This document shows positions 8,325 to 58,354 of a stretch of DNA of 64,000 nucleotides, piece after piece. Made by a program: the position numbers and the translations under genes. Where the stretch lies: the NCBI GenBank assembly GCA_964551965.1, contig CAZKFB010000001.1, positions 7,227 to 71,226 of the forward strand, given 5' to 3'. Source of the stretch: an uncultured Muribaculaceae bacterium. GTDB taxonomy: Bacteria > Bacillota_I > Bacilli_A > RF39 > UBA660. The notes under the pieces were generated by a model, which was not told where the DNA came from, searched no databases, and saw only the letters and a program-made list of their open reading frames with translations. Positions within the stretch are counted from its first letter, which is position 1; every line of letters starts with the position of its first letter.

Positions 8325-8332
8325 TAATAAGA

Positions 8333-9475: not shown

Positions 9476-9492
9476 AATTGGAGTGGTAAATA

Positions 9493-10578: not shown

Positions 10579-10593
10579 CTATCTCTTTTTTTT
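10571..10593 (+). terminator. Intrinsic terminator
   Basis: GAGATA/TATCTC hairpin overlapping the stop, followed by a 7-T run. Confidence 0.6.
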
Positions 10594-10678
10594 GATAATT
10601 ATAATTATTGAAAATATATATGTTAAGTTATATAATAAAAAATATAGGATAGTACTATATAGGAAGTAGGTATTAACC

Positions 10679-16995: not shown

Positions 16996-17340
16996 ATGAA
17001 ATTTATTAAAATAAAACCCACAACTAACTATAGTAATGAATCTATTATAAAACTATTTATTGAAGATAAATATTATCTTCATAAGACAACTATCACATTA
17101 ATACTTAACTATCCATTAGAAATAATCAATGGAATACCTGATGAATTAATAATACTAGTTCATAAAGGAGTAATTAATCAAGCATATATCAAGAGATTGG
17201 TATATAAAGAATCAACAGATAAAGAAGAAATAATAAAAGAATATTTGGAAATACCAAATATTTTTTTATTTAAAGGGGTTAATCATATTAAAACAAGCTG
17301 TAAAAATTTAGAAATAGAAATGGAGAATATATATGAATGA
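16996..17340 (+). CDS. Hypothetical protein (114 aa)
   Basis: ORF overlapping the start of the tail-collar gene by 8 nt, which suggests translational coupling. No recognised domain. Confidence 0.4.
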   Translation: MKFIKIKPTTNYSNESIIKLFIEDKYYLHKTTITLILNYPLEIINGIPDELIILVHKGVINQAYIKRLVYKESTDKEEIIKEYLEIPNIFLFKGVNHIKTSCKNLEIEMENIYE

Positions 17341-18001: not shown

Positions 18002-18020
18002 AGTTCTATAGGAGTGTACA

Positions 18021-21000
18021 ATGAAAGAATTAATTAATTTAAGAAAACAAAGAGAAAAACACTTTCTAAATAAAGATGGAACAATAACTGCATGTATGTA
18101 TGATCATGATATCCATTATTTAGAAAATGGAGAATATAAAGAAATTGATAATACTCTAATAGAAGAGAATGATTATATTACAAATAAAAGCAATGATTTT
18201 AAAATAAGATTTAATAATGATAAATATTTAGTCAATATTAATCTAGGTAATAGCTATTTAAATATAAGTTTAAAAAATGCTAATGAAACAAAATCAAAGA
18301 TAATTAATAATGAAGTAATCTATGAAAATGTTCTACCTAATATAGATTTTCATTATTTAATTAATGGTTCAACATTAAAAGAAAATATCTATTTAAATAA
18401 TGAAATAAAAAATAGTATAATTTTTAATATTGATACTAATTTAAAATTAGAAATAAGAGATAATAAGGTACTTGCATTAGATAAAGATAAGGTTATATAT
18501 ACATTTAATCCATTATTTATGATTGATGCAAATGAAGTAATTAATCGCAATTGTAAATATAAATTAGAAAAAAATAATGATTTTTATGAATTAGAGATTA
18601 TTCTTGATCAAGACTATTTAATGAATGCCAATTATCCAGTAATTATTGATCCAACAATTACAAGTGATAATTTAGAAAATGTATTTGATGTAACTATTAA
18701 TTCAAATGCTGCAGATAGTAATTTTGATTTTTCAAAACATTTATATATTGGAAATGATGGAACAGGAATAAAGCGTGCATTATTAAAATTTGATTTACCT
18801 TTTATTTCTACAGGTTGCAACATTATAAAAGCAACAGTATATTTAAAAAATTCAGTTGCATTTATCCATGAAAATTCTGAGAGAATTGCCGTCCACGAAA
18901 TTACAGAAAGTTGGGATGAATCAACTGCGACATGGAATAACATGAGTAGTAAATTCGATACTAAAATGGAAACTTATCTTGAAACACCTCAAATGTTATA
19001 CCTAGATACAGCATTTGATTTTGAAATAACCAATATTGTAAAAAAATGGTATACCAATAATGTTAATAACGGAATCATGCTAAAATTGTTTGATGAAAGC
19101 CCTAATACAAGTCATGCAGACTATAGCTTTTACTCTAAAACATATGATGGAGTAAATGGAACGGCAGATCGACCATATCTAGTTATTGAATATAGAATGC
19201 AAAATGGTCTATTAGATTATATGACATATGAAAGTATACCCCTTTCGTATGGCGCATCATACATTAATAATAATAATGGTAATTTGATAACTCAAATATC
19301 TTTATCGGAAATATTAGATCAAACAAGTTTATATGGTTTACAAATAACATATAATACAGATAGTATGTTATTAAACCAAAATAATGGTTTCGGATTAGGA
19401 TTCAATATCAGTTATAATGACTATGTAATAAAGACTCCTAATCAATTTATGGAAACGGAATATTTATATAAACTATCTGATGGAACTAGTCATTATTTCT
19501 ATCAATTTAGTAAAGGAATATTTTGTGATGAAGATGGCATAAATCTAACGTTAGAAATTGTTAATGAGGAAAATAATAATTATAAAATTACTGATAAAGA
19601 GGGAAATAAATTTATTTTTACCAATAGTTATTTATCAAAAATAGAATATGTCGATGAAACATTTGTTAATATTGTTAGAAATAGTTCTAATTATATTACA
19701 AGTATTAAAGATAGTAAGAATAATGAAGTTACTATTAACTATAATACAAATCAAGTTTTATTAACATGTAATAATAAAACAATTACTGTTAATTTAACAA
19801 ATAATAAGATAAATAATATTTCATTTAAAAAGGGAAATATTAATTTTAATTATAATGACAGTTCACTTATATCAAAAATTATTGATATTAATGGTTTAGG
19901 TGCAGGATTTGATTATTATGAGGTATCTCCTTATCGTGTAAAGAAATTAACTGAATATGGATTAAATAATGCTACCGGTAAATTCAAAACTTTTACATAT
20001 GAATTTAATTCGACAACAGTAACTGATCATAAGAATAATAAAATTAGATATACTTTCAATAATATGGGCAATACAATAAGCACTGTTATTTTAGGAAGTG
20101 ATGATTCATTAAAGAATTCTTATGGATTTTCAGAAAAATATATAGACGAAGTAAAGTCGGCTGCTACTAATAAAGTATTATCAAGTTCATTACCTATTAA
20201 GTTTACAAAAAATTTAATTAAGAATGGAAACTTTGAGACTACAGATAATAATTTCTTATTCCAGTATAAATCTAATGAAGATAGTTATAATGGCAATTAT
20301 TCAGCAAAAATTAACGCATATGGTAATGGACAAATAGCAAATGTTTTTGAGAGTACAAAAAATTATACTTTTGGTGCGTTTTATAAAAATGAACATCCAG
20401 TCTATATTGAAATATATTCTAAATTAAACACTGATGTAGAAACATTAAAAGAATACATTATTATGCCTAATGATGAATTTACTTATCAAGAAAAAACATT
20501 TGAGACACCTAGTCAGTTTGATTGTATTGGTTTTAACTTCACTGTTTTGTATGATGGAATTGCTTATATGGATGATGTTGTAATAAGCGAAGGAGAGTCA
20601 GCAGGATTATATAATTTAATCGATAACCCAGACTTTGAAGATAATACTGATGGTTGGCTAATTAGTGGAAGTGTTGACGGATCTGAAGAAGAAATAAGTA
20701 ATCCATATCAAATAATTACTTTGTCATCAAATGAAAAAGCTATTCAGTTAAATAGTATTGTCAATGGTGGAGTATCAATGGTTAAAACTTTACCTATTTC
20801 CGGAAAAATTGGAGATGCTTATACCTTTTCTTTTTGGTATAAGAATGAAGGAGTGTTTAATGTTGATTCGGGATTAGTTGGAAATATGGCAGCAATCATA
20901 TTTAACGATCCTGATGATGATTTAGGAAGTGGAACGCAAAATGCATTATTAAATTATCATGCTGATAATTGGCAATATTATACAGATACTTGTGTAGCAG

Positions 21001-23981: not shown

Positions 23982-23997
23982 AAAAAGGTGAAGAATT

Positions 23998-24294
23998 ATG
24001 GCAAAAAAGCAGTGTAGAATAGGAAGTATAATTTTTGCAAAAGAATACTTAACGGAGCAAAACGATTTTTTTAATAGAAAAATATACTATAATGAGATTA
24101 AAAGCTATTATATAAAGGCAACCATACATTCTAAATATATGACAAAAGATTTATGCATTATAACTGAAAAAAACAAAAAAAAGAAAATGTCCTATACAGT
24201 TGGACAATGTGGGATTTTTTTCTTTGATCCAGAAGAAAATATAATTAATATGATGAAAATGGTTTGCCCCCATGCTGAATATATAAAAAAATAA
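23998..24294 (+). CDS. Putative cognate immunity protein for the RHS C-terminal toxin
   Basis: Small ORF 17 nt downstream of the toxin stop, with GGTGAAG RBS. Position is typical for rhsI-type immunity genes. No homology asserted. Confidence 0.45.
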   Translation: MAKKQCRIGSIIFAKEYLTEQNDFFNRKIYYNEIKSYYIKATIHSKYMTKDLCIITEKNKKKKMSYTVGQCGIFFFDPEENIINMMKMVCPHAEYIKK

Positions 24295-24301
24295 GTATTA
24301 T

Positions 24302-24481
24302 CAGTAGTAAGCTATAAATATGATGGATGGGGAAATATATTAGAAGTAGAAGATAATACAACAAATAATATAGGAAGTATAAATCCATTCAGATATCGAA
24401 GTTACTATTATGACGAAGAGACTAGTTTATATTATTTAAATAGTAGATATTATAATCCAAAATGGTGTAGATTTATTAATG
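24302..24481 (+). repeat. Repeat copy B: RHS core-end homology in orphan cassette 1
   Basis: ~180 bp at >90% identity to 23214..23395 of the main gene. Homology ends exactly where the toxin domains diverge. Confidence 0.85.
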
Positions 24482-25104
24482 CTGATGGAATAGTAGGAGC
24501 AAACCAAGACATAACGAGTTTAAACTTGTATGCATATGTAAGTAATAATCCAATTAGTAATACGGATGATGATGGCAATTCATTATTTAAAGTGATAAGA
24601 AAAGCAGTTAAAATTGCCGCAAACATATCATTTAAAGGAGTTAAGGATAAAGTTGTTAACACAGCCAAAAGATATATTAAAAATAAGATAGATGGATATT
24701 ATCAAATTGGAAAAGCATATGTGGACTCTAAAATAAACGAAATGAATTTTAGAGCAAATGCATTTTATGCTGAAGTTGGTGTAAGTGACCCCACAGTAAG
24801 CAAAGCTATAAGTAAAAGTAATAATACGTTGGGGATATATACTAATAAAACATACAAAATTCACCAAAAACAGATTTCTCGTTCAGCGGATACTGTATTA
24901 AGTATAAGTCCAATTTCCATTTCAAAATCTATAGACGATGAATCGACTGTTAGTAAAAACATATCATATTCGTTTAAATATGTAGAATTGTCATCTGAGG
25001 GATTTTTCTTTGGATATTCTTTCAGTGAGCATCACGGCACCGTTGGAATAGATGCAAAATTAGGTTTATATGTCAAATGGGATTGGTTTATAAAAGGCAT
25101 TTAA
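24302..25104 (+). CDS. Orphan RHS C-terminal cassette: displaced core-end fragment fused in frame to an alternative toxin domain, with no upstream start codon
   Basis: Frame opens right after the immunity gene stop and encodes VVSYKYDGWGNILEVEDNTTNNIGSINPFRYRSYYYDEETSLYYLNSRYYNPKWCRFINADG...LNLYAYVSNNPISNTDDDGN. This duplicates residues ~1730-1815 of the main gene and is followed by a different ~175-aa C-terminal domain. The ORF track reports only the TTG-initiated 24526..25104 part. Confidence 0.65.
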
Positions 25105-25132
25105 AATGATATAGGAAGATAGGTAATGGTGT

Positions 25133-25660
25133 ATGAAAGATATAGTTAAATATAATATAATATTTTTTAATCTTTTTCCAATTATAATAGAATCAATAAT
25201 CATAATTGTGGGAAGTATAGTTTTTCAATCACCGATTTTTTTACTATCTTTTATATTTATATTTATTGAGTGTAAAAACCTAAGAAAAAATTTAGACAAT
25301 TTAAGAAAAGTTCAAAATAAATTTGATTGTGTTGGAGAAGTACTTTATCAAAACAGTGGGTGTTTTCTATATGACAGTTGTATTATAAACATTAAATTTA
25401 ATATTTTTACTGTAGATTATTCTGATATAGATGAAATATATTTTGAAAAAGAATATTATGGAAATGTAAGAGAGCCAAATATATGTATAATAACTAAGGA
25501 TAGAAAAAAATATAAAATTAAATTTCCAAGATTAACAGTACCACAACCAAATGATGAAGAACTTAATCTTATAATTGGCATTATAAAAAAGAATAATCCT
25601 AAGGTGAAATTGACTGGTAACACTATAAAAAAATATATCGAACCAGATTTATTTAATTAG
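25133..25660 (+). CDS. Putative immunity protein for orphan toxin 1 (membrane protein)
   Basis: Follows the orphan toxin by 28 nt. N-terminal hydrophobic region of two TMs (IIFFNLFPIIIESIIIIVGSIVFQSPIFLLSFIFIFI). Confidence 0.4.
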   Translation: MKDIVKYNIIFFNLFPIIIESIIIIVGSIVFQSPIFLLSFIFIFIECKNLRKNLDNLRKVQNKFDCVGEVLYQNSGCFLYDSCIINIKFNIFTVDYSDIDEIYFEKEYYGNVREPNICIITKDRKKYKIKFPRLTVPQPNDEELNLIIGIIKKNNPKVKLTGNTIKKYIEPDLFN

Positions 25661-25753
25661 TTTAAATTGTATAGTTTAATTATAGTTGAAAAGAATATAT
25701 GCAAAGAATATTTGTGGTAAAATAGTGAGTAATTTTTATTATTTTAAATCGAA

Positions 25754-26000
25754 AATAATAATGTGATATACTATATATATGATGATAGTGGTTACTTGTT
25801 AGGATTCAAATATAACAATGAAATGTACTATTATCAAAAGAACTATCAAAATGATATAACAGGAATCTATGATAGTAATTACAACTTAGTAGTAAGCTAT
25901 AAATATGATGGATGGGGAAATATATTATCAGTAGAAAATAATACAATAAATAGTATATGAAGTATAAATCAATATAGATATCTAGTTTACTACTACGATG
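25754..26000 (+). pseudogene. Orphan cassette 2: degenerate RHS core-end fragment with premature stops and the toxin domain lost
   Basis: Starts with the same aataataatgtgatatactatatatatgatg... as main-gene position 23079. Translates as ...YIYDDSGYLLGFKYNNEMYYYQKNYQNDITGIYDSNYNLVVSYKYDGWGNILSVENNTINSI*, then decays (stop codons within SINQYRYLVYYYDGDNIFVIYT*). Confidence 0.65.
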
Positions 26001-26094
26001 GAGATAATATCTTCGTTATTTATACTTAGCATATCATTTAATCATTCTATACAAAATAAATATATATTGATATCTAAATCCTCGGAGGAAGTTT

Positions 26095-26730
26095 ATGAAA
26101 AAAACAAAGATTACAATTACAAAAGAAAACATACCCATAATATCAGCAAAAGCAAATCTTTTGATAACAAAACTTTTTAAAATTAATTTTTTTGTTTGTC
26201 TATTAGCGGGATATTTCTTTGTGAATGATTTAGTTACAAATACTGTAAAAGAAAGCTCCAACAAATACAATGTGCAAACGGATAGTTATTTGATAGTTTC
26301 TGCAATTTTATTTGTTTTATTAGTAATTTTGATGAGATATTTACATTTATATTTTTCATATAAAAAAATGCATAACAAAAAATACAATGATGAAAATAAT
26401 TATACAATATCATATAAGAATGAGTATTTAATCGGGGAAAATATAAATACAAAAATCAAAGTAAATTATGATAAGATATTTTTTATTGGAAAAGTTGACT
26501 TGTTATATTTTATGGCCTATTTAGATGACAATGAATATTTTATATTGCCGATAGGAAATGTTGGAATAGATGGTTTTACAATTAATGAATTATTAGTTAA
26601 TTGTCACAATTTAAAATTTAAAAAAATAGTATCTTATAATTCGAAAAAAAAGTTGTGCATATTACTTTTTGTAATATTATTTCTGATGTTTTTAGTTAAT
26701 TTTACTAGATTCCTATATTGTATAATTTAA
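26095..26730 (+). CDS. Membrane protein, possible orphan immunity gene
   Basis: 211 aa with several TMs. GGAGGAAG RBS. Located directly after the degenerate orphan cassette. Confidence 0.35.
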   Translation: MKKTKITITKENIPIISAKANLLITKLFKINFFVCLLAGYFFVNDLVTNTVKESSNKYNVQTDSYLIVSAILFVLLVILMRYLHLYFSYKKMHNKKYNDENNYTISYKNEYLIGENINTKIKVNYDKIFFIGKVDLLYFMAYLDDNEYFILPIGNVGIDGFTINELLVNCHNLKFKKIVSYNSKKKLCILLFVILFLMFLVNFTRFLYCII

Positions 26731-26788
26731 ACAAATGCTTTTTCAAGTTGCAATATTGTCATCTGACGGATTATTATTTGGATAATCG

Positions 26789-26887
26789 TTCAGCTTGCAT
26801 TATGGTGGACCTGGAGGCAATATAAAGTTGGATATTAAATTTTTAGATGGACTAGATTTTTTTAAATTTAAATTCATAACCGTGTGA
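26789..26887 (+). pseudogene. Remnant of a toxin-domain 3' end (third displaced cassette tail)
   Basis: Short frame SFSLHYGGPGGNIKLDIKFLDGLDFFKFKFITV* resembles the C-terminal end of orphan toxin 1 (YSFSEHHGTVGIDAKLGLYVKWDWFIKGI*). It has no start and no upstream domain. Confidence 0.35.
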
Positions 26888-26946
26888 GTAGTAAAATCTA
26901 AAAGATATATATGAAAATGATCGAATATGAGTTATAATTGAAATGA

Positions 26947-27741
26947 TTGAAGTTGGTGATACTAGTGGATAATAAATTTACATATCTTATTGGTTGTATC
27001 TTCTTATTTGGTGTCTTTATCTATTTGATTTTTTGTGTTATAAAAGAGTTAAAATTGTATAAAAGTTTTGATTTATCAAAAAAAATAGATTTGAAAAAGT
27101 ACAATAAGATACAGGATGTCAAAACAAGAACAATTGCATATATTATTTTATCAATTTGTATAGGCTTGCTATGTGTATTGGCGCTCTTTAATTTACCTAA
27201 AATTATAACTGGATTTTATGATGATAATTTTATTATTCAAGAATGTGAGATAACAGACTATCTATATAATGGAGTAGATAATCCTGACATGCTTAGTTGC
27301 AAGAATGATAATTTGGAAATAAATGAAATAGAGTTCTATAGCAGAGCTGAATCCATAGATGAAGATAGTATCGGGAATCATATTTGTATTAAAATAAAGC
27401 CTAATAGAGGAAACGCTGAGATTATAAAAATGAGTAATGAACATAATCTTTCTTGTGATGAGTTTTATTGGCAAAATAAAAATGAAAAGAATGAAGTTAA
27501 TTATAATTACTCAATAGTTAAATGTGAAATTAGTAAATATGAAAAAAATAGAATTAACTGCCGTATTAATAATAAGATATATTTAAAAGAAATAGATTTA
27601 TTAAATAAAGAGACAATACAAAAGCATAATAAAATATGCTTAAAGTATTATTGGAATACTAATTCGGGAGAAATTCTATATTCAGATGATTCTAATAAGA
27701 AGTTTAGTTGTGATGATTATATAAAACAAGAAGAAAAATAA
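26947..27741 (+). CDS. Hypothetical protein with N-terminal TM, Cys-rich, possible orphan immunity or accessory gene
   Basis: 264-aa ORF with an N-terminal TM and a second TM near residue 60. No recognised domain. Confidence 0.35.
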   Translation: MKLVILVDNKFTYLIGCIFLFGVFIYLIFCVIKELKLYKSFDLSKKIDLKKYNKIQDVKTRTIAYIILSICIGLLCVLALFNLPKIITGFYDDNFIIQECEITDYLYNGVDNPDMLSCKNDNLEINEIEFYSRAESIDEDSIGNHICIKIKPNRGNAEIIKMSNEHNLSCDEFYWQNKNEKNEVNYNYSIVKCEISKYEKNRINCRINNKIYLKEIDLLNKETIQKHNKICLKYYWNTNSGEILYSDDSNKKFSCDDYIKQEEK

Positions 27742-27768
27742 GATTATAAAGATTAATAGGAGTATTAA

Positions 27769-28347
27769 ATGGAAAAGATAGTAATAAGAGTATTAGGAGT
27801 TTTGTTTATGCTAGTTGCTTTAAAATTAATTAGAGATGTGGCCAGTTCTGATAATTATAATAAAACTCAATCTATAAAAGAAAAAATCCTTAAAACAAAA
27901 AATATTAAAGGGTATACTTGTTCCAATCGAGATGGGTATAAACTAATATTCTTTGGTTTAACAATTGTTTTTCTTATTATGACTGTTATAAGTCTGATTG
28001 TATTTATATATGAAATAATAAAAAAATATGATGTCAGCGAGACAAATAATATTCTTGGTATAACAAGTGTTATGCTTTGCTTATTCCTTGCCAGTCTTTT
28101 ATTATTTATTTATACTTCAAAGTGCAATCTCTATTTTAATGATGAAGAAATAATTAGATATAGGATATTAAGGAAAAAACAAGTCATGAAATATAAAGAT
28201 ATTGTGAGAACAATGGTAACCCCATTTTCTAGAATAATATTATATTCAACAGATGACAAATTGATATTTGGACTAGATACATCACAAAGCAATAAATTTA
28301 TTGATTTATTGAAAAAAAAGGGAATAGACATTAGTTATAAAATGTAA
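27769..28347 (+). CDS. Membrane protein (4 predicted TMs), unknown function
   Basis: GGAG RBS. Hydrophobic segments at about residues 5-20, 60-80, 95-115 and 150-165. Confidence 0.4.
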   Translation: MEKIVIRVLGVLFMLVALKLIRDVASSDNYNKTQSIKEKILKTKNIKGYTCSNRDGYKLIFFGLTIVFLIMTVISLIVFIYEIIKKYDVSETNNILGITSVMLCLFLASLLLFIYTSKCNLYFNDEEIIRYRILRKKQVMKYKDIVRTMVTPFSRIILYSTDDKLIFGLDTSQSNKFIDLLKKKGIDISYKM

Positions 28348-28418
28348 AAACTTTTTATTGTATTTTAAAAAACTATTATTCAGAAAAAAATTTATTTGAG
28401 CGGTATTTAGCAACAATT

Positions 28419-28443
28419 AAGAGCAATTTTATTGCTCTTTTTT
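28419..28443 (+). terminator. Intrinsic terminator immediately upstream of the hydrolase/holin genes
   Basis: AAGAGCAAT-ttt-ATTGCTCTT hairpin followed by a T-run. Confidence 0.6.
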
Positions 28444-28462
28444 AATGAAAGGAAGTGAGTTA

Positions 28463-29086
28463 ATGGCATATATATTAAGAAAAATAATTAATAGTCCATT
28501 AAAGGATATAACTAGTTCTAAGATTAATTCTGATTTTGGACCACGAACTTTTTATAATAAGATAACTAAAAGATATGAAACAGGACACCATAATGGTATT
28601 GATATTACAGGAAGCAATGTTGTCGTTTCTGCTTTTGATGGTATTGTTACTAGTACAAGAAATAATGTTGATGGTTATACGGAAAAGTATAAGAGTGGTA
28701 ATTACGTAACTATAAATCACGGTAATAATCTATATTCAACCTATTGCCATCTAAAAAAGAATTCTATTTGTGTAAAAAAAGGACAATATGTAGTAGCTGG
28801 TACTAAACTAGGTATAATGGGCAAGACTGGTCATGCAACCGGAATACACTTACATTTTGGTATTAAAAAGGATGGCAAATTTGTTGATCCTAAACCATAT
28901 CTTTTAAACAATGTTGCAAATATTAAAAATAATATTGAAGTTATCTATATTGTAAAAAAGGGAGATAATTTATCAAAGATAGCTAAGAAATATCATACTA
29001 CTTGGAAGAGAATATATGAAAAGAATAAGGAATTAATAGGAGACAATCCTAATTTAATATATCCGGGATGGGAATTAAAGATTTAA
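28463..29086 (+). CDS. M23 family peptidoglycan endopeptidase with C-terminal LysM domain
   Basis: M23 metal-binding motifs HHNGIDI ... GNYVTINHGNNLYSTYCHL ... GKTGHATGIHLHFG. The C-terminal LysM is YIVKKGDNLSKIAKKYHTTWKRIYEKNKELIGDNPNLIYPGWELKI. Start taken at 28463 (GGAAGTGAG RBS) rather than the track's 28445. No signal peptide. Confidence 0.8.
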   Translation: MAYILRKIINSPLKDITSSKINSDFGPRTFYNKITKRYETGHHNGIDITGSNVVVSAFDGIVTSTRNNVDGYTEKYKSGNYVTINHGNNLYSTYCHLKKNSICVKKGQYVVAGTKLGIMGKTGHATGIHLHFGIKKDGKFVDPKPYLLNNVANIKNNIEVIYIVKKGDNLSKIAKKYHTTWKRIYEKNKELIGDNPNLIYPGWELKI

Positions 29087-29457
29087 TTAATATTAATGTG
29101 ATAAGTAGTACGTTTATTTTTTTAATAGGTGGCTTTGATAATTTATTTATAACTTTATTAATATTCATTGCTCTTGATTATATAACAGGTGTAATTAAAG
29201 CAATTTATCAAAAAAAGTTAAATAGCAAATTAGGATTAAAAGGATTTTTAAAAAAATTAGGTTATATATTAATAGTAATAATAGGAAGTTTATTTGATTC
29301 ACTTATAGGAGATAAAACAATGGCAATAAGAACATTATGTATATATTTCTTTATTTCTAATGAAGCCATTTCAATACTTGAAAATTGGGCGTTTATGGGT
29401 CTTCCACTTCCCAAGAAAATATTTCAAGTATTTGAATCTTTAAAAGAAGATAAATAA
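29068..29457 (+). CDS. Holin of the TcdE/UtxA family (toxin-secretion / phage-lysis holin)
   Basis: Three-TM small protein. LDYITGVIKAIYQKKLNSKLGLKGFLKKLGYILIVIIG and the C-terminal ILENWAFMGLPLPKKIF align by eye with my recollection of the C. difficile TcdE sequence. The start overlaps the hydrolase gene end by 19 nt. Confidence 0.75.
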   Translation: MGIKDLININVISSTFIFLIGGFDNLFITLLIFIALDYITGVIKAIYQKKLNSKLGLKGFLKKLGYILIVIIGSLFDSLIGDKTMAIRTLCIYFFISNEAISILENWAFMGLPLPKKIFQVFESLKEDK

Positions 29458-44821: not shown

Positions 44822-45414
44822 TTTGCAAAATTCTTAGTAATATGCTATAATGTTTCTTGTGTGGTGCATTATGCTAGTCATTACACTATTTGAAGGTAGG
44901 CCTAAAAATCTACCAATTGTACAACTGACACTTTGCTTATCTGCTTCTTCGGCCCAAGTTGGGGTGGATAGGTGATTTAAAATTCAAGGATAAATTATAA
45001 TGGCATATAATTGAGCGTCCTTTTATTGAGTCTCTTATACAAATAATAGTAAATAACGTACATGATGTGAGTGAGTTCTAGGAATTAACGATCTTAATGT
45101 TATGAAATAGAATTTGCAAAAGCATATAAGAATAGTCACTATTGTTAGGGAAAACCTCTAGCGTGTATATATTATAAGTATTGGAGTGCGGACTAAGTGG
45201 TAATCGAGTAGTTAGAACGGAGACGACTAACTAAAGTTTTTAAATCGAAAGAGCACAAGGGTAACCGAGTGTAGACTTTAGAGAAATTCAACTCGACCAA
45301 AGCCGTAAAATTGATTTATAATATACCATACAAATAAAACCAAACTTTAATGAGGGGGAAACCAAGTTAAAGTTTTTTTCATGGATTAAAATATGTTATA
45401 ATTATATATAGTAG
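44822..45414. ncRNA. Candidate structured non-coding RNA or cis-regulatory element (unidentified)
   Basis: ~590 nt with no ORF of 60 aa or more in any frame. GC is ~40% against ~25-28% in the flanks. Several local hairpins are visible: GGTAG-n9-CTACC, TAGTTAG-n11-CTAACTA, CGAGT-n20-ACTCG, CCCAAGTTGGG. Confidence 0.3.
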
Positions 45415-45945
45415 GTGGAATATATGAAAAGTAATCGACAATGGATTATTACAATATTTATATTAACTTTTATTTTATCAATTATATTTAGTGCAGTATC
45501 AAATTGTATAGTTGCTGTCTTTAATGAAGTAGTTTTAGCTATTATTTTAGTTCTAGTAATTGTAATTGGTATTCTATTTGATTGTATTGGTGTTTCGGTA
45601 ATAACAGCTAGTGAAGCAACTTTCCATTCTATGAGTTCAAAGAAAGTTAAAGGCGCTAAAGAAACTATTACTTTAATTAAAAATAGTAGTAAGATTTCAA
45701 GTGTATGTAATGATGTAGTAGGAGATGTATGTGGGATATTGTCTGGAGGATTAGGTGCAGTGCTCGCAATATCTTTATCTACGAGAACCGGAATAAATAA
45801 TACAGTTATATCAGTTATTATATCTTCTCTTATTTCCGCTTTTACAGTAGGTGGAAAAGCTATCTTTAAAGGAATTGCAATGAAAAATGCCGATAAAATA
45901 ATATTTGTCGTTGGTAAGATAAAACATTTCTTTAAGATTAAGTAG
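45415..45945 (+). CDS. Small polytopic membrane protein (176 aa)
   Basis: 4 predicted TMs. RBS GGTGGA upstream. Lies directly downstream of the candidate RNA region. Confidence 0.5.
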   Translation: MEYMKSNRQWIITIFILTFILSIIFSAVSNCIVAVFNEVVLAIILVLVIVIGILFDCIGVSVITASEATFHSMSSKKVKGAKETITLIKNSSKISSVCNDVVGDVCGILSGGLGAVLAISLSTRTGINNTVISVIISSLISAFTVGGKAIFKGIAMKNADKIIFVVGKIKHFFKIK

Positions 45946-51100: not shown

Positions 51101-51116
51101 TTACTAACTCTTTTAT
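51090..51116. terminator. Bidirectional intrinsic terminator
   Basis: AGAGTTAG-tta-CTAACTCT hairpin with an A-run upstream and a T-run downstream. Confidence 0.7.
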
Positions 51117-52111
51117 TCATATAATGAATCATCATCTTCTAAAGAATCATCGAAGTTAATATCTATATTGATATCTTCGTCTTTATCTTTGTCTTTTTTC
51201 TTTTTATCTTTCTTATCTTTTTTCTTTTCTGATTCTTTTTCATCTTGAACAAATGATTCTACATTGTCATTTTCAATTACGATCTTATGTTCATTACCTT
51301 CGATTACTTCTTCGTTGTCATAATCACTTACTTCTTCATCTTTAACCATATCGGAAATATCAACAGGTTCTAATGATTCAGTAACTTCATCTTCGACATC
51401 ATCCATAATATCATTACTTATTTCATTTACTTTTTCAACTTCATGGTTATCTTCATCTTCAGTAATATCTTCATCGATATCGAAATCTTCTTCTACGTTG
51501 TCAAAATCTTCCTTTACTTCGTCATTTTCATCGTTAGAAGCAGTAATATCGGTATCTATATCAATAGAAGTAGTAGTTTGTTCTATTGCAGGCATATTAC
51601 CAGTTAAATTATCTTTATGAGTAGATGAATAATTAATAATATCTCCTAAAACAGTAGAGTAGTAATTATAGGCATCTAATATTTTGTTTAAACATAACTC
51701 TAAAGCTTTCTTTTCTGAAGTTAATTTAACTAACTTAGATTTTACATTTTCAGCTTTATCTACAAGTTCGTTCATAGCATTCTTATCTTTAACAATCTTT
51801 CTTTTTCTTTCATCGATCTTTAAAGATATTTCTTTATTAGCAGCTATAAGTATATTAGCAAGCTCATCATCTTTGAATCTTTCAACTAATTTTTGATAAT
51901 CAGTTTCAAAGCCTTCGATATCAGCATTCATCTTTTCGATCTTAGCTTTTGATTCAAAGAATTCAGTTTTATACTTTTGTACTTTTTCTAATTGAGCATC
52001 TATTTCTACACTATTAGCTTTAAGTTTTTCTTCATATTCTTCTTTAATTTTTGTTAAATTAGCAATAATATCAGTTAATCTGCTATTAGTTTCACTAACT
52101 AAATTGTCCAT
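51113..52111 (-). CDS. Acidic coiled-coil protein (332 aa) with highly D/E-rich C-terminal half
   Basis: N-terminal ~200 aa show heptad-like coiled coil. The C-terminal ~130 aa are an acidic low-complexity region ending in a KKDKKKKDKDKDED tract. Confidence 0.5.
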   Translation of the reverse strand: MDNLVSETNSRLTDIIANLTKIKEEYEEKLKANSVEIDAQLEKVQKYKTEFFESKAKIEKMNADIEGFETDYQKLVERFKDDELANILIAANKEISLKIDERKRKIVKDKNAMNELVDKAENVKSKLVKLTSEKKALELCLNKILDAYNYYSTVLGDIINYSSTHKDNLTGNMPAIEQTTTSIDIDTDITASNDENDEVKEDFDNVEEDFDIDEDITEDEDNHEVEKVNEISNDIMDDVEDEVTESLEPVDISDMVKDEEVSDYDNEEVIEGNEHKIVIENDNVESFVQDEKESEKKKDKKDKKKKDKDKDEDINIDINFDDSLEDDDSLYE

Positions 52112-52223: not shown

Positions 52224-52252
52224 TTGACTTATGTGAAATACTTGCATATAAT
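52224..52252 (+). promoter_or_regulatory. Consensus-like sigma-A promoter with no ORF downstream
   Basis: TTGACT, 17-nt spacer, TATAAT. The next ORF of 60 aa or more on this strand starts 490 nt away. Confidence 0.5.
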
Positions 52253-52631
52253 AGAGATACTTAGTAAGGTAACTAACTAAGCAACTGATATTTATTTTAT
52301 ATTTATTTTTATCCAAACGAAAATAAATATATTAATACTTATCTTTAACTGTTTTATTTTTGTATTAGAGTACTTGGTTATTAAATAATCAAAAAAAACT
52401 CTAATACTCAAAAATAATACAAGACTGCTTTAGTTTTGTGCTTATAATTATTTCATTGAACGGGATGTCCAATACTAGTTATAAGTATTCTTGTTACTAG
52501 ATGCCTATTTTGGTCTTATCTTTGTACTAAGTATGTGATCACAGTGAGAAAGAAAACTCAATTTTATTAGATAAGCAATTATAGAGGATGACCTGACATT
52601 CATCGGAAATAATTGATCTAAAAACTAGGGA

Positions 52632-52661
52632 ATATATAGTTGTCAGCTATATATTTTTTTT
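52632..52661 (+). terminator. Intrinsic terminator inside the intergenic leader
   Basis: ATATATAG-ttgtcag-CTATATAT hairpin (AT-rich, 8 bp) followed by an 8-T run. Confidence 0.45.
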
Positions 52662-52684
52662 ATGCTTATTTTTATTTAATACCC

Positions 52685-52713
52685 TTGCATATAAAATACA
52701 AGTTTGATATACT
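52685..52713 (+). promoter_or_regulatory. Second candidate promoter, immediately upstream of the 52741 operon
   Basis: TTGCAT, 17-nt spacer, extended -10 TGaTATACT. AAAGAGGAT RBS precedes the ATG at 52741. Confidence 0.5.
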
Positions 52714-52740: not shown

Positions 52741-53460
52741 ATGAGAAATGTTTTAGGTTTTCTAATTCTAGGCCTGGTTTCTCTTTTTGTTATACCTAAT
52801 AATGTTTTCGCTGATTCGTGTGACTATAAGGTAAAAGCACAGCTAAATAAATATGCTTTTAATGTAAAAGCAGAATATGAATTTAAGAAGAACGAAGATG
52901 GAAGCACTTACTTTGATGTAATTATATATAATATTGTCCCTGACATTTATATTAATTATAAAAGTGAGTTAGAGGGTAGAACTTCAATAGGAAAGAATGT
53001 TATTTATGAGGAAACCAACAGCGGTACTTATAAATTTAGTATTCCTATTCCGAGTCAGCCTTTTGATTACATTATATATGTTAGAACAGCTAAAGAGGGA
53101 TGCGCTGGAGATTTAAGAAAATTTAATCTCTCCATACCAATTAGAAACTCTTATCATGATTTGGATGATTGTAAGAGAGTAGGCATGGAAGACTATTATT
53201 ATTGTAAAGAATGGATATCTGATGAATTCAACTTATCTTCAAAAGAGATAGAAAAAAAGATAAGAGAAAAGTATGAGGCATTAAAGAAGAATACAACTAC
53301 TAAATGTATTGGTTGTGATGAAAGAGCAAGAAATGCAGCTAAGATTAAAGCTTTCAATGAGTTAAAAATGAAGATAATAATAGGTATATCAATAGGAATT
53401 GTATTAGATCTAATAATCATGATTTTTCAAATAATAAATATTAGGAGGAGCGAGATATGA
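52741..53460 (+). CDS. Secreted, C-terminally TM-anchored protein (paralogue 1)
   Basis: Signal MRNVLGFLILGLVSLFVIPNNVFA, a Cys-containing domain, and a C-terminal TM IIIGISIGIVLDLIIMIF followed by a basic tail. Confidence 0.5.
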   Translation: MRNVLGFLILGLVSLFVIPNNVFADSCDYKVKAQLNKYAFNVKAEYEFKKNEDGSTYFDVIIYNIVPDIYINYKSELEGRTSIGKNVIYEETNSGTYKFSIPIPSQPFDYIIYVRTAKEGCAGDLRKFNLSIPIRNSYHDLDDCKRVGMEDYYYCKEWISDEFNLSSKEIEKKIREKYEALKKNTTTKCIGCDERARNAAKIKAFNELKMKIIIGISIGIVLDLIIMIFQIINIRRSEI

Positions 53461-54389
53461 CAAGATTGAAAGAGAAAAAAGAGTTCAAAAGAGAATATAT
53501 TCCCGTTATTGTTACAGGAATTATATTAATACTTTTGGTTGGTGCTCTAGTGTTCATGATATTTTATAAAGGAAATCTAGAACTTGAAGATGTTCCAAAA
53601 GATTCTGGACATAAAGTAGATGAACTTAATGTTGAAGTTGATAAAAGCAAATGTTCAACTGAGTTAATTAAAAAATTAAGTGATGAAGCAAAGAAAATAA
53701 AGATGAGCTATAAAGAAAAAGCAATTCAAGCTGATCTTTATGAAGCTGATGATGATTCGGGAGAAAACTTCTATACATATGATCATGTATGGAATGTAAC
53801 TTTTGATAATGTAACTGATAACTTCTATTTGAAAATAACTAATGATTCAAATGATACAGTTAAAACCATTACAAAAGATACACTTCAAGATGGTAAATGG
53901 TCATTTGATACTGAAGTAGATGATGATGTAGTAACTTATACAATCTCCGTTATCTCTAATCCTGAAGGATGTAAAGAACAAGTATTTAGAAAATTTGAAT
54001 TAAAAGCATTAATATTTAATGTATGGAGTAATAGTTCAAAATGTTCAGTTTATAAAGATTTCAAATATTGTCAAAGATGGACTGATGAAGATACAGTCAC
54101 TATTGATAAATTTGAAAGTGAATTAGCTAAGTATAAGAAAGAACATCCTGAAATTAAAGAAAAGAATCCATTTGGTGTTGAAGTACCAACTACTACATCT
54201 AGTACAAATAGTACAGATAAGACAAATGGTAATACTAAAACTACTAGTAAAAATAATAATGATGTAACAAATAAAGAAAATAATAAAAAGACAATAGATA
54301 ATAAAGTAATATATGCTGGTGCAGCAATACTAGCTGTTATCGTTGGGGTGGTAATCGTGGTACTGCTTAAAAAGAAGAGGAGTAAGTAG
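53457..54389 (+). CDS. C-terminally TM-anchored surface protein (paralogue 2) with Thr/Asn-rich stalk
   Basis: N-terminal signal-anchor. Shares a domain with the preceding protein (EGCAGDLRKFNLSIPIRNSY...DDCKRV...YYYCKEWISDEF versus EGCKEQVFRKFELKALIFNVW...SKCSV...FKYCQRWTDEDT). TSSTNSTDKTNGNTKTTSKNNND stalk. C-terminal TM AILAVIVGVVIVVLL followed by KKKRSK. Confidence 0.5.
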   Translation: MTRLKEKKEFKREYIPVIVTGIILILLVGALVFMIFYKGNLELEDVPKDSGHKVDELNVEVDKSKCSTELIKKLSDEAKKIKMSYKEKAIQADLYEADDDSGENFYTYDHVWNVTFDNVTDNFYLKITNDSNDTVKTITKDTLQDGKWSFDTEVDDDVVTYTISVISNPEGCKEQVFRKFELKALIFNVWSNSSKCSVYKDFKYCQRWTDEDTVTIDKFESELAKYKKEHPEIKEKNPFGVEVPTTTSSTNSTDKTNGNTKTTSKNNNDVTNKENNKKTIDNKVIYAGAAILAVIVGVVIVVLLKKKRSK

Positions 54390-54390
54390 T

Positions 54391-57300
54391 ATGAAAAAGA
54401 AATTATTATTGTTAATTATTATGGTTTGTATGGTTGTATTTACTCCTAATGTAAGTGCAAAGTCAAATGCAGTAGCAAGGTATAAGAACTTTCCTGGATC
54501 AGGAACAAACTATATAAGATCTGGTGTTATATATGCCGGTGAAGGAGATAAGAACCCTAGTAGTGCAACTAGAGGAAACTTTAAACTATATAATCAATAT
54601 ATTGAAATGAATGGAAAAGAATATAAAGCTTGGTGTGTTGACCCAGCATTACATTCACCTAGAGGTGCTGGTTATACATGTACTCCATTAAAGGATGCCG
54701 GCCTTGAATATATTTTTAACAATTTAACAGGTGATGAAACAATAAATGCTTTTGCATTTAGATTCTATGCTATTTATGCTGGTATTGGTATGACAATAAA
54801 GGATGAAAGTGGAAATGAAGTCACTCACTCAAGTTTAAACTATCCAAAAGCAGCAATAATTAGATACTTACAAGCAAGAAACGGTGATGGTGGTGTAACT
54901 TCTGAATATGGATCTGATTATAATCAATTCTTATCAGGAAATACTGCTGCACTTGATGCTGCATATAATATAGCTACAACAGCTGCACAACTTAAACAAG
55001 CATCAGAGTTGGAAGAGGCTACATCGGGAGATGGTAGTGGATTAAAATATACCATGACAACTCATGATAAAATGAGTGTAACATATGTAGTTACATCAGC
55101 ATTTGCAATGAAAAGAGAAGAAATGGAATTCACTTGTGAAAATTGTGCTAGTGTTGATGTCCTAAGTTGGTCAGAACACAGCGTTACTATAAAAGTAAAT
55201 CAATTATCAAGTGAAGGTGAAGGATGTAAATTTACTGTTTTAGCAACATTTAAAAAGAATGGTTTGTATGGTTGCTATGGTGGTGAAGGAAATCAATTTG
55301 AAGTTATCGTAGTTGATGATCCTACTTCAACACCATTCCCATTTGAAGGTCATAATCCTGAATGTGGAAGTGAATGCTGTACTGAGGCCCCTCTTGATAA
55401 ACCATTAGATGGAATTGTTGCAAACTGTTGTGAAGAGACAACTCATTCTTATGTAAAAGAATATGATCTTGATGATTTATTCTGTTACCATAATGAACTA
55501 CAAGTTCCTCATTATTGGGAAAAATGTGGAGCTGATGCTTATAAAACTGAAGAAATAAATGAATATTGTGATTTATATTGTACTGAAAGAGTTACAATCG
55601 ATATTCCGGGAGCAATAACTGCTAAGTCAGGAAGATACTTTACACTTTCTAAAAATCCTGTTGGAAATACAACAAGTCCATATATTCAAGGATTTAAGAG
55701 ATGCCGTGTTAGAGTTAAATATGACTTATGGGAAAAACATTATGTTGATGCCGTTAAGAATGAGGTAAATAAATATAATGAATTCCAATTAGCTGCAGCA
55801 AATTATTATTTCTACGTTCAAGGAGAACCGGGAGGATACTTAGGTTCAGAAAACGTAAGTGGAGATGCAACTTTAACACAAAATTGTGAAAAATATGGAA
55901 AATATTGTAGTAGAACCGTAAGTTGTACAGTAGGAACAGCCGGATGTGGAACTGATGGTACGAAGTCCGAAGATTATGATTGTTGGGTAGCTGATACACC
56001 AGCAACAGGATCATATCATTTCTCATATACAAAATATAAGTTTAAAACATCATTGCCATATCATACTTCTAAATATAAAGAAGACCCAGTAACTCATAAA
56101 GAAATTGAAGTATTACCAAATGGAACTAAAAATGCTTCACATGATCCATTTACGGTTTGGGATAGAGATAAGCAATATCAAGAAGCTGTACAAAAGGCAA
56201 ACGCGTTAACTTGTCCTGGAAGAGAGAACGGCTCTCCTTCTGTAACTGGTTTTGATTTAAGTGGTAAAAACGAAAACTTTGATAATCAAAAATCATCATT
56301 AAAAGGAATAATGGATGGAGCCGAAAACGCATATGCAACAGCCGTTTCTGATGCAAAAACTCTAGAACAGTTATTAACTGATTGTGATACTTACTTTGAT
56401 ACTAAATCAGCTAATGAAATGTACGAATTTGATCCTTCGATGTCATTTAGATACACACAAATATATCGTAATGATAGAGGACAATCAGAATTAAGTGTAT
56501 TACCAGTTAACTTCATGGAAACTCCTGGATGTACTATATCAGGACCTGAAAAAGGAGATATCACTTATGAAGGTGGTATGGATACAGCATCACCTAGATA
56601 TTCTGGAGTATACTTAACAGGTTTCTTCAATGGTAAAGACTTCGATGGTGGAAAGATTGAATACGATTTTAACGGAAGTAAATTCCCAAGTGAAAAGGAT
56701 CCGGATCCATATAAAGCAGATAAATTATTTACTCACGATGCAAGATATAAAGCTGTATGTGAATGGGAAGAAGATCCAAACAATGTTAATACATTAGTAC
56801 CAAATGGTGCTGTTACTGAAGATGCCGTTATGAACTTTACAAAACATGAATATGAATATAAGGTATTCTTAACAACATACGATGGTTCATTCGAAACTGA
56901 TTGGTCAGTATCTAATATCGGTGAAAAAGGTAAATTTGATGACTTTATTATCGAAAACGGTGGAACAACATGTGCAGGAAATCCAAGTTCTAAGAATGAA
57001 ATGTTCAGTTGTACATTACATGTAGAATATGAAATTGTATATACAGGTAAGTGTAATGGAACTACTACAAATCCTGCAGATTGTGACCCAGTAAATAATG
57101 TTGAAGGATTGTTCCAATTCAAGGTTGCTGATCCAGCAAATATATTCCCAACAGGAACTACATCAGATACAGGTGCTCCTATTGCAAGAAACTGGACAGA
57201 CACATCAGAAGGACAAACAACTAAAGCAGAGATTGAACAAAGAGCAGCTAGAGGATTAACTTATGCGCAAGAAAGGGAATCATATAAATTCCATTTAACT

Positions 57301-57576
57301 CCTGAAATAATGCGTCATATTAAAAACTATAACGTAACTAAGAATCAAGGAAATATTGGTGGATATTCAGATTTCAATATGACTTGTGATTGTCCTAGTC
57401 AAGTTCAAACTAATACTCTACAAGGTGGAGGAGTTGGATGTACTAGATGTCGAAGCAATCTACTTACTGATTTAGCAAATAATTCAATTAGTTATGAAGG
57501 TCAAACTTATACAGTTAGAGCTTGGTCATCAAGAAAATCAATTGATCAAGTTAGAAACGAATCACATTGGAGGTAA
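54391..57576 (+). CDS. Large (1061 aa) secreted cysteine-rich protein of unknown function
   Basis: Signal MKKKLLLLIIMVCMVVFTPNVSA. More than 40 Cys, often in CxxC/CC pairs (CGSECCTEAP, NCCEET, CDCPSQ...CTRCRS). No TM or sorting signal. Translationally coupled to the upstream gene. Confidence 0.55.
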   Translation: MKKKLLLLIIMVCMVVFTPNVSAKSNAVARYKNFPGSGTNYIRSGVIYAGEGDKNPSSATRGNFKLYNQYIEMNGKEYKAWCVDPALHSPRGAGYTCTPLKDAGLEYIFNNLTGDETINAFAFRFYAIYAGIGMTIKDESGNEVTHSSLNYPKAAIIRYLQARNGDGGVTSEYGSDYNQFLSGNTAALDAAYNIATTAAQLKQASELEEATSGDGSGLKYTMTTHDKMSVTYVVTSAFAMKREEMEFTCENCASVDVLSWSEHSVTIKVNQLSSEGEGCKFTVLATFKKNGLYGCYGGEGNQFEVIVVDDPTSTPFPFEGHNPECGSECCTEAPLDKPLDGIVANCCEETTHSYVKEYDLDDLFCYHNELQVPHYWEKCGADAYKTEEINEYCDLYCTERVTIDIPGAITAKSGRYFTLSKNPVGNTTSPYIQGFKRCRVRVKYDLWEKHYVDAVKNEVNKYNEFQLAAANYYFYVQGEPGGYLGSENVSGDATLTQNCEKYGKYCSRTVSCTVGTAGCGTDGTKSEDYDCWVADTPATGSYHFSYTKYKFKTSLPYHTSKYKEDPVTHKEIEVLPNGTKNASHDPFTVWDRDKQYQEAVQKANALTCPGRENGSPSVTGFDLSGKNENFDNQKSSLKGIMDGAENAYATAVSDAKTLEQLLTDCDTYFDTKSANEMYEFDPSMSFRYTQIYRNDRGQSELSVLPVNFMETPGCTISGPEKGDITYEGGMDTASPRYSGVYLTGFFNGKDFDGGKIEYDFNGSKFPSEKDPDPYKADKLFTHDARYKAVCEWEEDPNNVNTLVPNGAVTEDAVMNFTKHEYEYKVFLTTYDGSFETDWSVSNIGEKGKFDDFIIENGGTTCAGNPSSKNEMFSCTLHVEYEIVYTGKCNGTTTNPADCDPVNNVEGLFQFKVADPANIFPTGTTSDTGAPIARNWTDTSEGQTTKAEIEQRAARGLTYAQERESYKFHLTPEIMRHIKNYNVTKNQGNIGGYSDFNMTCDCPSQVQTNTLQGGGVGCTRCRSNLLTDLANNSISYEGQTYTVRAWSSRKSIDQVRNESHWR

Positions 57577-57581
57577 TATAG

Positions 57582-58013
57582 ATGAAAGAGAGTATGTGGG
57601 GCTACTGGATTGTAGTTCTTGGAGTATCAATCATGTCTGTTATGGTTTTATTGCAAAACATGACAACAACTAATGAACAAGATTATTATTTAATAAAAAG
57701 TTGTCTAGAAGCATCAATGTATGATGCTATAGACTATGGTTATTATCGTGATACTGGAGACTTAAAGATGAACCAAGAAAAGTTCACTGAAAGTTTTGTT
57801 AGAAGATTCTCAGAAATAATAAATATCAATAGAGATTATGATATTACTTTCTATGATATTTATGAAGAACCTCCTGCAGCTAGTGTTGGTGTTAAAACTA
57901 ATACTAAATCTGGTGGTATTGGTCAAGCAGCATCAAATGCTGATGGATTAGATGTAACTAATAGACTAACTGGTATACTTTATACTAATTCACTATATAA
58001 TCCAAGAAGTTAA
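57582..58013 (+). CDS. Small N-terminally anchored protein (143 aa)
   Basis: N-terminal TM WGYWIVVLGVSIMSVMVLL. Last gene before a strong terminator. Confidence 0.45.
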   Translation: MKESMWGYWIVVLGVSIMSVMVLLQNMTTTNEQDYYLIKSCLEASMYDAIDYGYYRDTGDLKMNQEKFTESFVRRFSEIININRDYDITFYDIYEEPPAASVGVKTNTKSGGIGQAASNADGLDVTNRLTGILYTNSLYNPRS

Positions 58014-58083: not shown

Positions 58084-58344
58084 ATGGAAATATTAAAAGT
58101 ATCTAGTAAGTCTAATCCAAGCAAAGTAGCAGGCGCTATTGCTAATGTATTTAGAAATTTTGGGAAAGTTGAAATTCAAACTATTGGTGCTGGTAGTTTA
58201 AACCAAGCAATTAAAGCTATATGTATTGCAAGAGGATTTGTTGCACCATCAGGTAAAAATATTGTTGTCATTCCTGCTTTTTCTGATATTACAATTGATG
58301 GAGAGGAAAAGACTGCTATTAAATTAATTGTAGAGGCTAGATAA
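58084..58344 (+). CDS. spoVS: Stage V sporulation protein S
   Basis: 86 aa. MEILKVSSKSNPSKVAGAIANVFRNFGKVEIQTIGAGSLNQAIKAICIARGFVAPSGKNIVVIPAFSDITIDGEEKTAIKLIVEAR is near-collinear with my recollection of B. subtilis SpoVS. Confidence 0.85.
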   Translation: MEILKVSSKSNPSKVAGAIANVFRNFGKVEIQTIGAGSLNQAIKAICIARGFVAPSGKNIVVIPAFSDITIDGEEKTAIKLIVEAR

Positions 58345-58354
58345 GCCTCTTTTA
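58334..58354 (+). terminator. Intrinsic terminator after spoVS
   Basis: GAGGCT-agata-AGCCTC hairpin overlapping the stop, followed by a T-run. Confidence 0.6.

Follow-up and report, generated by a model that had tools for sequence, protein, structure and literature searches.

A four-gene operon of uncultured gut Bacilli, most likely encoding a membrane-anchored surface adhesin, and its structured upstream RNA

A 64-kb stretch of bacterial DNA with a G+C content of ~26% (from contig CAZKFB010000001.1; referred to below as the window) carries on its plus strand a four-gene operon whose products most likely build a membrane-anchored surface adhesin. The operon comprises gene 1 (52741-53460; 239 aa), gene 2 (53457-54389; 310 aa), gene 3 (54391-57576; 1,061 aa), whose product is called the giant in what follows, and gene 4 (57582-58013; 143 aa), which encodes a DUF5411 protein. 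Genes 1 and 2 overlap by 4 nt, a gap of 1 nt separates gene 2 from the giant gene, and 5 nt lie between the giant gene and gene 4. A four-gene module on a single strand, followed by spoVS, had been described in the first-pass annotation of this DNA, and it is borne out by the positions and spacing of the open reading frames (ORFs) and by Pfam. The more specific reading that we favour is that the operon encodes a cell-surface adhesin complex, namely the half of a divergent, Tad-like type IV filament system that makes up its tip or its cargo, a proposal for which we regard the chances of being right or wrong as about equal.

The giant begins with a Sec-type signal peptide (aa 1-23; 54391-54459), recognised from the sequence, which ends in VSA before a Lys and includes a hydrophobic segment at aa 3-24. 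This is followed by a variable N-terminal head (aa ~25-315; 54463-55335), with a fold like that of class II thioester domains, and by a conserved Cys-rich core (aa ~320-1061; 55348-57576) with a C-terminal Trp tail (..SHWR). Both the signal peptide and the lack of a wall-sorting motif had been pointed out before, and LPXTG is indeed absent; the earlier count of more than 40 Cys was too high, as there are 34, 33 of them in the mature protein. The giant shares 29-78% identity with its homologues. Across 39 of these, 17 Cys are invariant and five nearly so, the 17 invariant Cys of the core including CxxC, CC and CxC groups. An exhaustive profile search of 1.84 billion proteins identified 429 representatives of the family, mostly full-length proteins of ~900-1,350 aa along with shorter fragments. 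The AlphaFold2 (AF2) model of the giant, built with the 39 homologues, has a mean pLDDT of 80, and the core is modelled as long beta-hairpins and helices of 30-37 residues. Because giants with other heads align to the family profile only from position ~311-329 onwards, the protein can be described as an exchangeable head of ~315 aa on a conserved core of ~740 aa. Two of these alternative-head giants (L006 and P0194) carry NlpC/P60 or Amidase_5 heads, which were the only informative domains when N-terminally extended giants were scanned.

In PDB, the giant has significant fold matches only to class II thioester domains from TIE adhesins of Gram-positive bacteria, the SfbI thioester domain among them. 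Foldseek placed them in the head (6fwy_A, E 2.3e-6, probability 1.00; also 6fwv, 3fbq and 5a0l), with TM-scores that are low, the query being 1,061 aa, and the match rests on a predicted model. Class II thioester domains carry an inserted beta-sandwich (PMC6194298), and on the strength of the Foldseek matches we assign the head to this fold, defined as a beta-barrel and a helical bundle with such an insertion. The candidate thioester residue is Cys82 in the sequence AWCVD, in which Trp replaces the Tyr, Phe or Leu of the motif [YFL]C-phi-zeta; the homologues have AYC[VIL]D or AFCID, and we counted this Cys motif as that of a class II domain. In the model, the stretch between residues 219 and 296 contains seven beta-strands, and Gln302, ~220 residues after Cys82, opens the strand 303-308. 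The Cys motif is present in 23 of the 39 homologues, and every one of these also has the Gln; the other 16 carry a different N-terminal region, and 14 of these lack the Gln as well. Since the fold match and the co-occurring Cys/Gln pair fit the class II definition, a Cys82-Gln302 thioester bond in the giant is a well-founded prediction.

The product of gene 4, for which no family had been recognised, belongs to Pfam DUF5411 (PF17424; 181 bits with a cut-off of 30, E 1e-53), the match covering model positions 1-133 of 134. A second match, to FilC, is weak (23 bits with a cut-off of 630). DUF5411 is the best conserved of the four genes, with 60-94% identity among the homologues listed, and its N-terminus, MKESxWGYW, is invariant. 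In the AF2 model (pLDDT 65), a helix at residues 5-48, which includes the membrane segment and an extension of it, is followed by two short helices and three strands, a predicted topology that is compatible with a pilin-like protein; a comparison of the DUF5411 profile with PDB sequences gave no match. In three loci of relatives in which the module adjoins motor genes, DUF5411 is fused to a C-terminal module of the Peptidase_C39-like or the Peptidase_M15 (D-Ala-D-Ala dipeptidase type) family (L046 10001-11179; L055 10001-11176; L064 4557-6197). It thus acts like a carrier that is anchored in the membrane and bears extracellular modules.

The products of genes 1 and 2 are related to each other. 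The gene 1 protein consists of a signal peptide, an ectodomain of ~150 aa with four Cys, a CxxC motif and a C-terminal transmembrane (TM) anchor. In the gene 2 protein, an N-terminal TM segment precedes the four-Cys ectodomain, a stalk rich in T, N, S and K, and a C-terminal TM segment followed by KKKRSK. Thus the T/N stalk and the C-terminal TM segment proposed for gene 2 at first pass are present, and the simple type I topology is not, as the N-terminus has a TM segment too. Pairwise similarity between the two proteins is weak (BLASTP E 3e-6, 25% identity), but a comparison of profiles from 16 gene 1 and 14 gene 2 orthologues aligned 149 columns (residues 26-179 of gene 1 and 63-228 of gene 2) with 99.8% probability (E 6e-30), and the four conserved Cys line up. 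At the level of sequence profiles this is decisive for true paralogy, a relationship that had been proposed in weaker form, and it rules out an artefact of low-complexity composition. Because the profile match spans 149 columns, the shared domain is ~150 aa in size rather than the ~90 aa initially given. Neither these two proteins nor the giant had a significant match in Pfam, NCBIfam or PHROGs, and their homologues are unnamed in every source checked. The genes 1 and 2 products may serve as anchors of the giant. A further protein, encoded at 37970, had been noted for the same layout of signal peptide, Thr stalk and C-terminal TM segment; the layout is there, and homology was rejected, as the protein has no similarity to either gene product.

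The distribution and co-occurrence analysis suggested with the first-pass annotation found the four genes recurring in the same order, gene 1, gene 2, giant and DUF5411, in dozens of genomes of uncultured gut Bacilli and Erysipelotrichales. The lineages carrying the module presumably include RF39-like groups. Its chromosomal site is constant: one flank has a S-adenosylmethionine methyltransferase or NAD kinase together with a divergent gene for an acidic coiled-coil protein, and the other flank has spoVS, PGA_cap and recX. In some genomes the module is tandemly duplicated or reordered. A DUF5411 profile scan of species-representative genomes yielded 293 relatives, from which 78 loci were kept, nearly all of them labelled as uncultured Bacilli, 'Tenericutes' or Erysipelotrichales gut metagenome-assembled genomes. 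According to ORF maps of these 78 loci, the 26 closest to the window share its arrangement. In 40 of the 78, a single anchor gene resembling genes 1 and 2 is followed by a Cys-rich giant, DUF5411 and then directly by genes for proteins of ~275, 366, 297 and 262 aa. The families of these last four genes were read with Pfam and NCBIfam on two loci, L047 and L039. In L047 they encode a protein that matches RcpC/CpaB weakly, an ATPase of the T2SSE family (E 2e-27) whose best models are VirB11, TadA and TrbB, all of them under the NCBIfam cut-offs, and two polytopic membrane proteins that belong to no family and did not match the T2SSF model. The Pfam annotation of a variant locus, L120, was uninformative. 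Since the profile of the window's giant family matches the motor-linked giants (E 1e-7 to 1e-34), the trio of anchor, giant and DUF5411 is homologous in both arrangements. Moreover, a Trp is found within the last six residues of nearly all giants, with or without a motor. Independently, Miller et al. (2022; PMC9523054) reported DUF5411 next to CpaF and PilC-like genes when listing 'membrane machineries' predicted for Clostridia.

The window itself carries, right after rpoA-rplQ on the plus strand, a T2SSF gene for a PilC/GspF-type platform protein (3736-5304; E 3e-54) and a prepilin peptidase gene (5324-6088; A24_N_bact E 5e-33, Peptidase_A24 E 3.6e-9). A pilin ORF with a Glu at position +5 was not found within the 64 kb.

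The reading as the tip half of a Tad-like system is based on the combination of a Sec signal, a variable head on a conserved base and C-terminus, a conserved small partner, and a motor in half of the relatives. The conserved gene order, the homology of the giants in both arrangements, the neighbours of DUF5411 in Clostridia and the thioester-like head also speak for it. Because several defining features of the Tad, PilY1 and TIE systems fail, we claim that the module works like them and not that it is a member of any of them. In the proposed mechanism, the giant would dock by its C-terminal tail on the pilin-like DUF5411 protein, in analogy to PilC/PilY1/MshQ and their minor pilins, and would then stay at the membrane or be carried by a short filament, from where it would be projected across the wall. 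Additional anchoring, or a part in assembly, would fall to the ectodomains encoded by genes 1 and 2, and the thioester head might bind its target covalently. In the present lineage, the complex would either be served by a motor encoded elsewhere or function as a static anchored adhesin; since no motor gene adjoins the module here, its function may be independent of a motor. Wall-spanning machines of Gram-positive bacteria commonly include peptidoglycan hydrolases, and we counted the peptidoglycan-hydrolase modules fused to DUF5411 or to giants in favour of the tip reading. The broader idea of an adhesin-like surface assembly, put forward at first pass, is supported by the thioester-type fold of the head, the co-varying Cys and Gln, and the membrane-anchored partners with external domains.

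Several results weigh against the filament-tip proposal. With phmmer at E values up to 10, the L047 motor proteins had no homologue among the ORFs of the window, and in the 26 species-level loci closest to the window no genes of the L047 type were found within 10 kb. When the surroundings of the motor-linked loci were searched for Flp-type pilin ORFs, none adjoined them and a single orphan came up in L036, an ORF of 75 aa (MKINKKGQALVEYVIII...; 18657-18884) that lies 8 kb from a DUF5411 module and has no motor genes adjoining; TadZ was likewise not found. As regards gene 4, Foldseek comparison of the model with PDB gave a best E of 0.49 and no pilins, a TadE signal was absent from the Pfam results of 56 DUF5411 members, and the sequence MKESxWG followed by YWIVVLG places a Gly before the helix without the Glu at +5 of class III. 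As regards the giant, Foldseek found neither a PDB fold match for the core nor a PilY1-like propeller, and docking of the protein on DUF5411 is pure analogy. Finally, the motif TQXX-phi-W is absent from the first 320 aa of the giant; the corresponding helix reads T..Q.A.R in homologues and TINAFAFR in the window, although this motif is not essential for bond formation (PMC6194298).

Two further readings are, in our view, possible and no stronger than tentative. One extends the filament-tip proposal to an unrecognised organelle of the type IV filament superfamily, at the surface of uncultured gut Bacilli, in which DUF5411 would stand in for the pilins and the giant with its exchangeable heads (thioester adhesin, peptidoglycan hydrolase and others) would form the tip; one clade would have become separated from the motor and come under a new class of ~400-nt RNA with a kissing terminator loop, described below. 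The other, the main rival of the filament-tip proposal, is that of a static adhesin independent of any motor, i.e., a Sec-exported giant held by DUF5411 and the two four-Cys anchors, with neither filament nor ATPase, the motor linkage of the sister clades then reflecting a different or an ancestral use. The lack of L047-type motor genes in the window and near its close relatives agrees with this, as do the TM anchors found in all three partners and the duplication of the anchor gene in this clade, where one copy has a long stalk that could compensate for a missing filament. Less easily reconciled with a static adhesin is the conservation of DUF5411, which remains 60-94% identical with an invariant N-terminus where no motor adjoins, suggesting that it still meets a conserved machine; besides, a motor need not be encoded next to the module, and PilC-like and prepilin-peptidase genes are present in the window.

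That the module remodels the bacterium's own envelope, as a cell-wall or sporulation-linked morphogenetic device acting in division, engulfment or at the spore surface, appears unlikely. Such a role could be read from the adjacent spoVS, which no terminator-like site was found to separate from gene 4, from a SpoIIP gene after DUF5411 in another clade, and from the NlpC/P60 or Amidase_5 heads of some giants together with the Peptidase_M15 or C39-like modules of some DUF5411 proteins. But the sporulation neighbours are not the same in every clade, and the 40 motor-linked loci lack them, the head of the window's giant is thioester-like and not a hydrolase, and there was no match to coat, exosporium or SpoIIIA/Q families. 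Nor was support found for the exosporium-like alternative raised at first pass, since Pfam, NCBIfam and PHROGs identified no coat, exosporium or S-layer/SLH family among the four proteins and spoVS adjoins the module in one clade only.

That the operon belongs to a mobile element and encodes an adhesin for mating or conjugation is, in our view, very improbable. Gram-positive conjugation systems do include class II thioester adhesins as well as VirB11-like ATPases, the top fold matches of the head are class II TIE proteins, and the related motor ATPase scores best with the VirB11 and TrbB models; in Bacillus subtilis, efficient conjugation is reported to depend on one such adhesin (PMC8092201). 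Against this, the chromosomal neighbours (methyltransferase, NAD kinase, RecX and PGA_cap) are constant across species, the G+C content shows no break from the surroundings, and the Pfam annotations of the neighbours in the window and in L001-L007 list housekeeping genes and include no VirB4, coupling protein, relaxase or integrase. Equally remote is a secreted toxin or bacteriocin with small membrane proteins for immunity or export, which would account for a large, secreted Cys-rich protein with exchangeable domains beside such proteins, as a variable N-terminus on a conserved C-terminus is the reverse of polymorphic toxins, Pfam and NCBIfam scans and the alternative-head giants revealed no toxin domain, and the small proteins are far better conserved than usual immunity proteins.

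Upstream of gene 1, a 630-nt spacer shows 79% conservation at the DNA level where the gene 1 proteins are only ~35% identical. It contains what is, on well-supported grounds, a previously undescribed structured RNA of ~400 nt (52256-52664), characterised by strong covariation and an intrinsic terminator and assigned to the plus strand because of its G-U pairs and T-run. The RNA is preceded by a strong promoter, P1 (TTGACT-17-TATAAT, 52224-52252, plus strand), with 11 of 12 matches to the consensus and hexamers that are kept in 22 orthologous regions. Downstream of the RNA, a second, candidate promoter (P2, TTGCAT-17-TATACT, in which a TG extends the -10 element; 52685-52713, plus strand), assigned a function from sequence, has a TTTGnTATACT block that is kept in 22 of 22 aligned regions, and a ribosome-binding site (AAAGAGGA) lies between it and gene 1. 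In the layout of the RNA, an 8-bp helix joins the 5' end to ~52547, followed by two 3' hairpins and the intrinsic terminator, a hairpin with a T-run near 52625-52661. The terminator loop, UUGUCAG, and the loop of the upstream hairpin, CUGACA, are both invariant and complementary to each other. In a set of 20 distinct sequences, 98.7% of the cells in the RNAalifold structure with the proposed loop-loop pairing were paired, compared with 38-46% in slid-partner controls, and 19 pairs had compensatory changes; none of 500 shuffles reached the observed values. The minimum free energy of the copy in the window has a z-score of -5.7.

A search of Rfam 15 with this RNA gave no match, the highest score being that of PGK (23 bits with a gathering threshold of 51, E 2.2) and the lowest E that of a spurious microRNA (E 0.29); RNase P RNA, tmRNA, T-box and known large RNAs were rejected by Rfam and by ARAGORN, which found no tmRNA. 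A motif scan of metagenomes returned 92 stretches, of which 21 were true homologues, and wherever a flank was available these stood directly upstream of gene 1 or, in the reordered variant, of the giant. The RNA lies upstream of the module in all loci of close species, and its motif occurs only in the clade without a motor, being absent from the motor-linked relatives. Tandem copies of the 3' domain, i.e., the hairpin, the loop motif and the terminator, are present ahead of a gene 1-like gene in L032 (4240-4741) and L120 (9905-10762), an arrangement typical of cis-regulatory elements. The RNA may represent a small-RNA gene in its own right or else a long leader with a regulatory role; as a lineage-specific companion of the operon it probably regulates its expression.

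Beyond the RNA, and divergent from it, lies a gene on the minus strand (51113-52111) for a coiled-coil protein of 332 aa that has a long acidic tail and belongs to no family; in the window's clade, all loci have it at the same place (19 loci matched). At the other end of the module, spoVS (Pfam SpoVS, E 9e-36) and the first terminator-like hairpin 3' of the module (58332-58350) occupy 58084-58350 on the plus strand. The terminator scan found no plus-strand terminator-like site in the interval between gene 4 and spoVS, and spoVS is possibly co-transcribed with the module. It is probably not part of it functionally, and it adjoins the module only in the window's clade. The G+C content of the module shows no break from that of its surroundings.

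Elsewhere in the window, an ornate large extremophilic (OLE) RNA (44845-45345, plus strand; 225 bits, E 5e-62) is clear-cut, and after it come genes for a small membrane protein resembling CNNM (45415-45945) and for a PAP2 phosphatase. On the plus strand, clustered genes for proteins with signal peptides (7743-12670) include two with TasA/camelysin-like N-termini (7743-8324 and 10679-12670, the latter with CBM26), which flank the genes of a DUF5305 protein and of a membrane protein that matches the signal-peptidase S26 domain weakly; by eye, the cluster resembles a SipW-type fibre or secretion cluster. Also on the plus strand, the region 17333-29457 encodes an RHS-repeat protein of 1,986 aa (18021-23981), with a baseplate Gp10_C-like protein before it and small membrane proteins, an M23-LysM peptidase and a phage-type holin after it, and looks like a polymorphic-toxin or phage-remnant island.

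The lineages concerned, labelled as Bacilli, Tenericutes or CAG:582, are uncultured and abundant in human and animal guts, and little is known of how they attach. If the proposals made here are correct, a conserved and often duplicated module with swappable heads, one of which may bind covalently, would be a prime candidate for attachment to the host or to partners. The orphan family DUF5411 would gain a concrete and testable role beside a Tad-type motor, and a design consisting of a large tip adhesin and a small pilin-like partner would reach monoderm bacteria without recognisable pilins. The new structured RNA has a fixed genomic partner, and its function, probably in the control of adhesin expression, is directly testable.

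Among known systems, close parallels are found at the tips of type IV filaments. PilC/PilY1 (~1,000 aa) and MshQ (~1,200 aa), of type IVa and MSHA pili, are Sec-exported tip adhesins that are encoded beside minor pilins and dock by their last residues onto the pilin sheet, and TadG/CpaL is used likewise at the tips of Tad pili (PMC13533445). Like these proteins and their PilK-type minor pilins, the present module pairs a Sec-exported protein of ~1,000-1,200 aa with a small protein that has an N-terminal helix; the giant likewise has a variable head, a conserved C-terminal part and a conserved extreme C-terminus, and its terminal Trp would, by analogy, be compatible with strand docking of the PilY1 type. 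Unlike PilC/PilY1, the giant has no likeness in sequence or fold to the PilY1 C-terminal domain (Pfam, Foldseek), and its DUF5411 partner lacks the class III Glu at +5 and has no match to solved pilins. Furthermore, the partner gene lies downstream rather than upstream, and the bacterium concerned is Gram-positive or has a reduced wall.

Tad tips are customised by variable functional domains (PMC12075869). The module resembles the Tad (type IVc) system, with its TadE/TadF/TadG (CpaL) tips, in that the trio of 40 of the 78 relatives is followed by a CpaB-like protein, an ATPase of the TadA/VirB11 family and two polytopic membrane proteins. It differs in that the searches revealed neither an Flp pilin nor TadZ nor a Pfam signal for TadE, the ATPase falls under the NCBIfam cut-offs, and the window is without the motor.

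With the class II TIE adhesins (BaTIE, EfmTIE86 and SaTIE), the giant shares the predicted fold of the head, the AWCVD sequence, the downstream Gln and the seven-strand beta region between the two. However, it has no LPXTG, no isopeptide (CnaB) stalk domains, no Pfam domain and no TQXX-phi-W motif; in addition, its thioester-like domain sits as the head on a Cys-rich core that is unrelated and much larger.

The remaining comparison is with the DUF5411 machineries predicted for Clostridia, and thus outside Bacilli. The operons listed there contain small proteins and an internalin-like protein of 478 aa, but no giant and no four-Cys anchor (PMC9523054). In parallel to the present module, these machineries, predicted in Roseburia, Ruminococcus and Eubacterium, combine DUF5411 with a CpaF-type ATPase and a PilC/GspF-like protein, and they are likewise uncharacterised systems of gut Firmicutes (PMC9523054).

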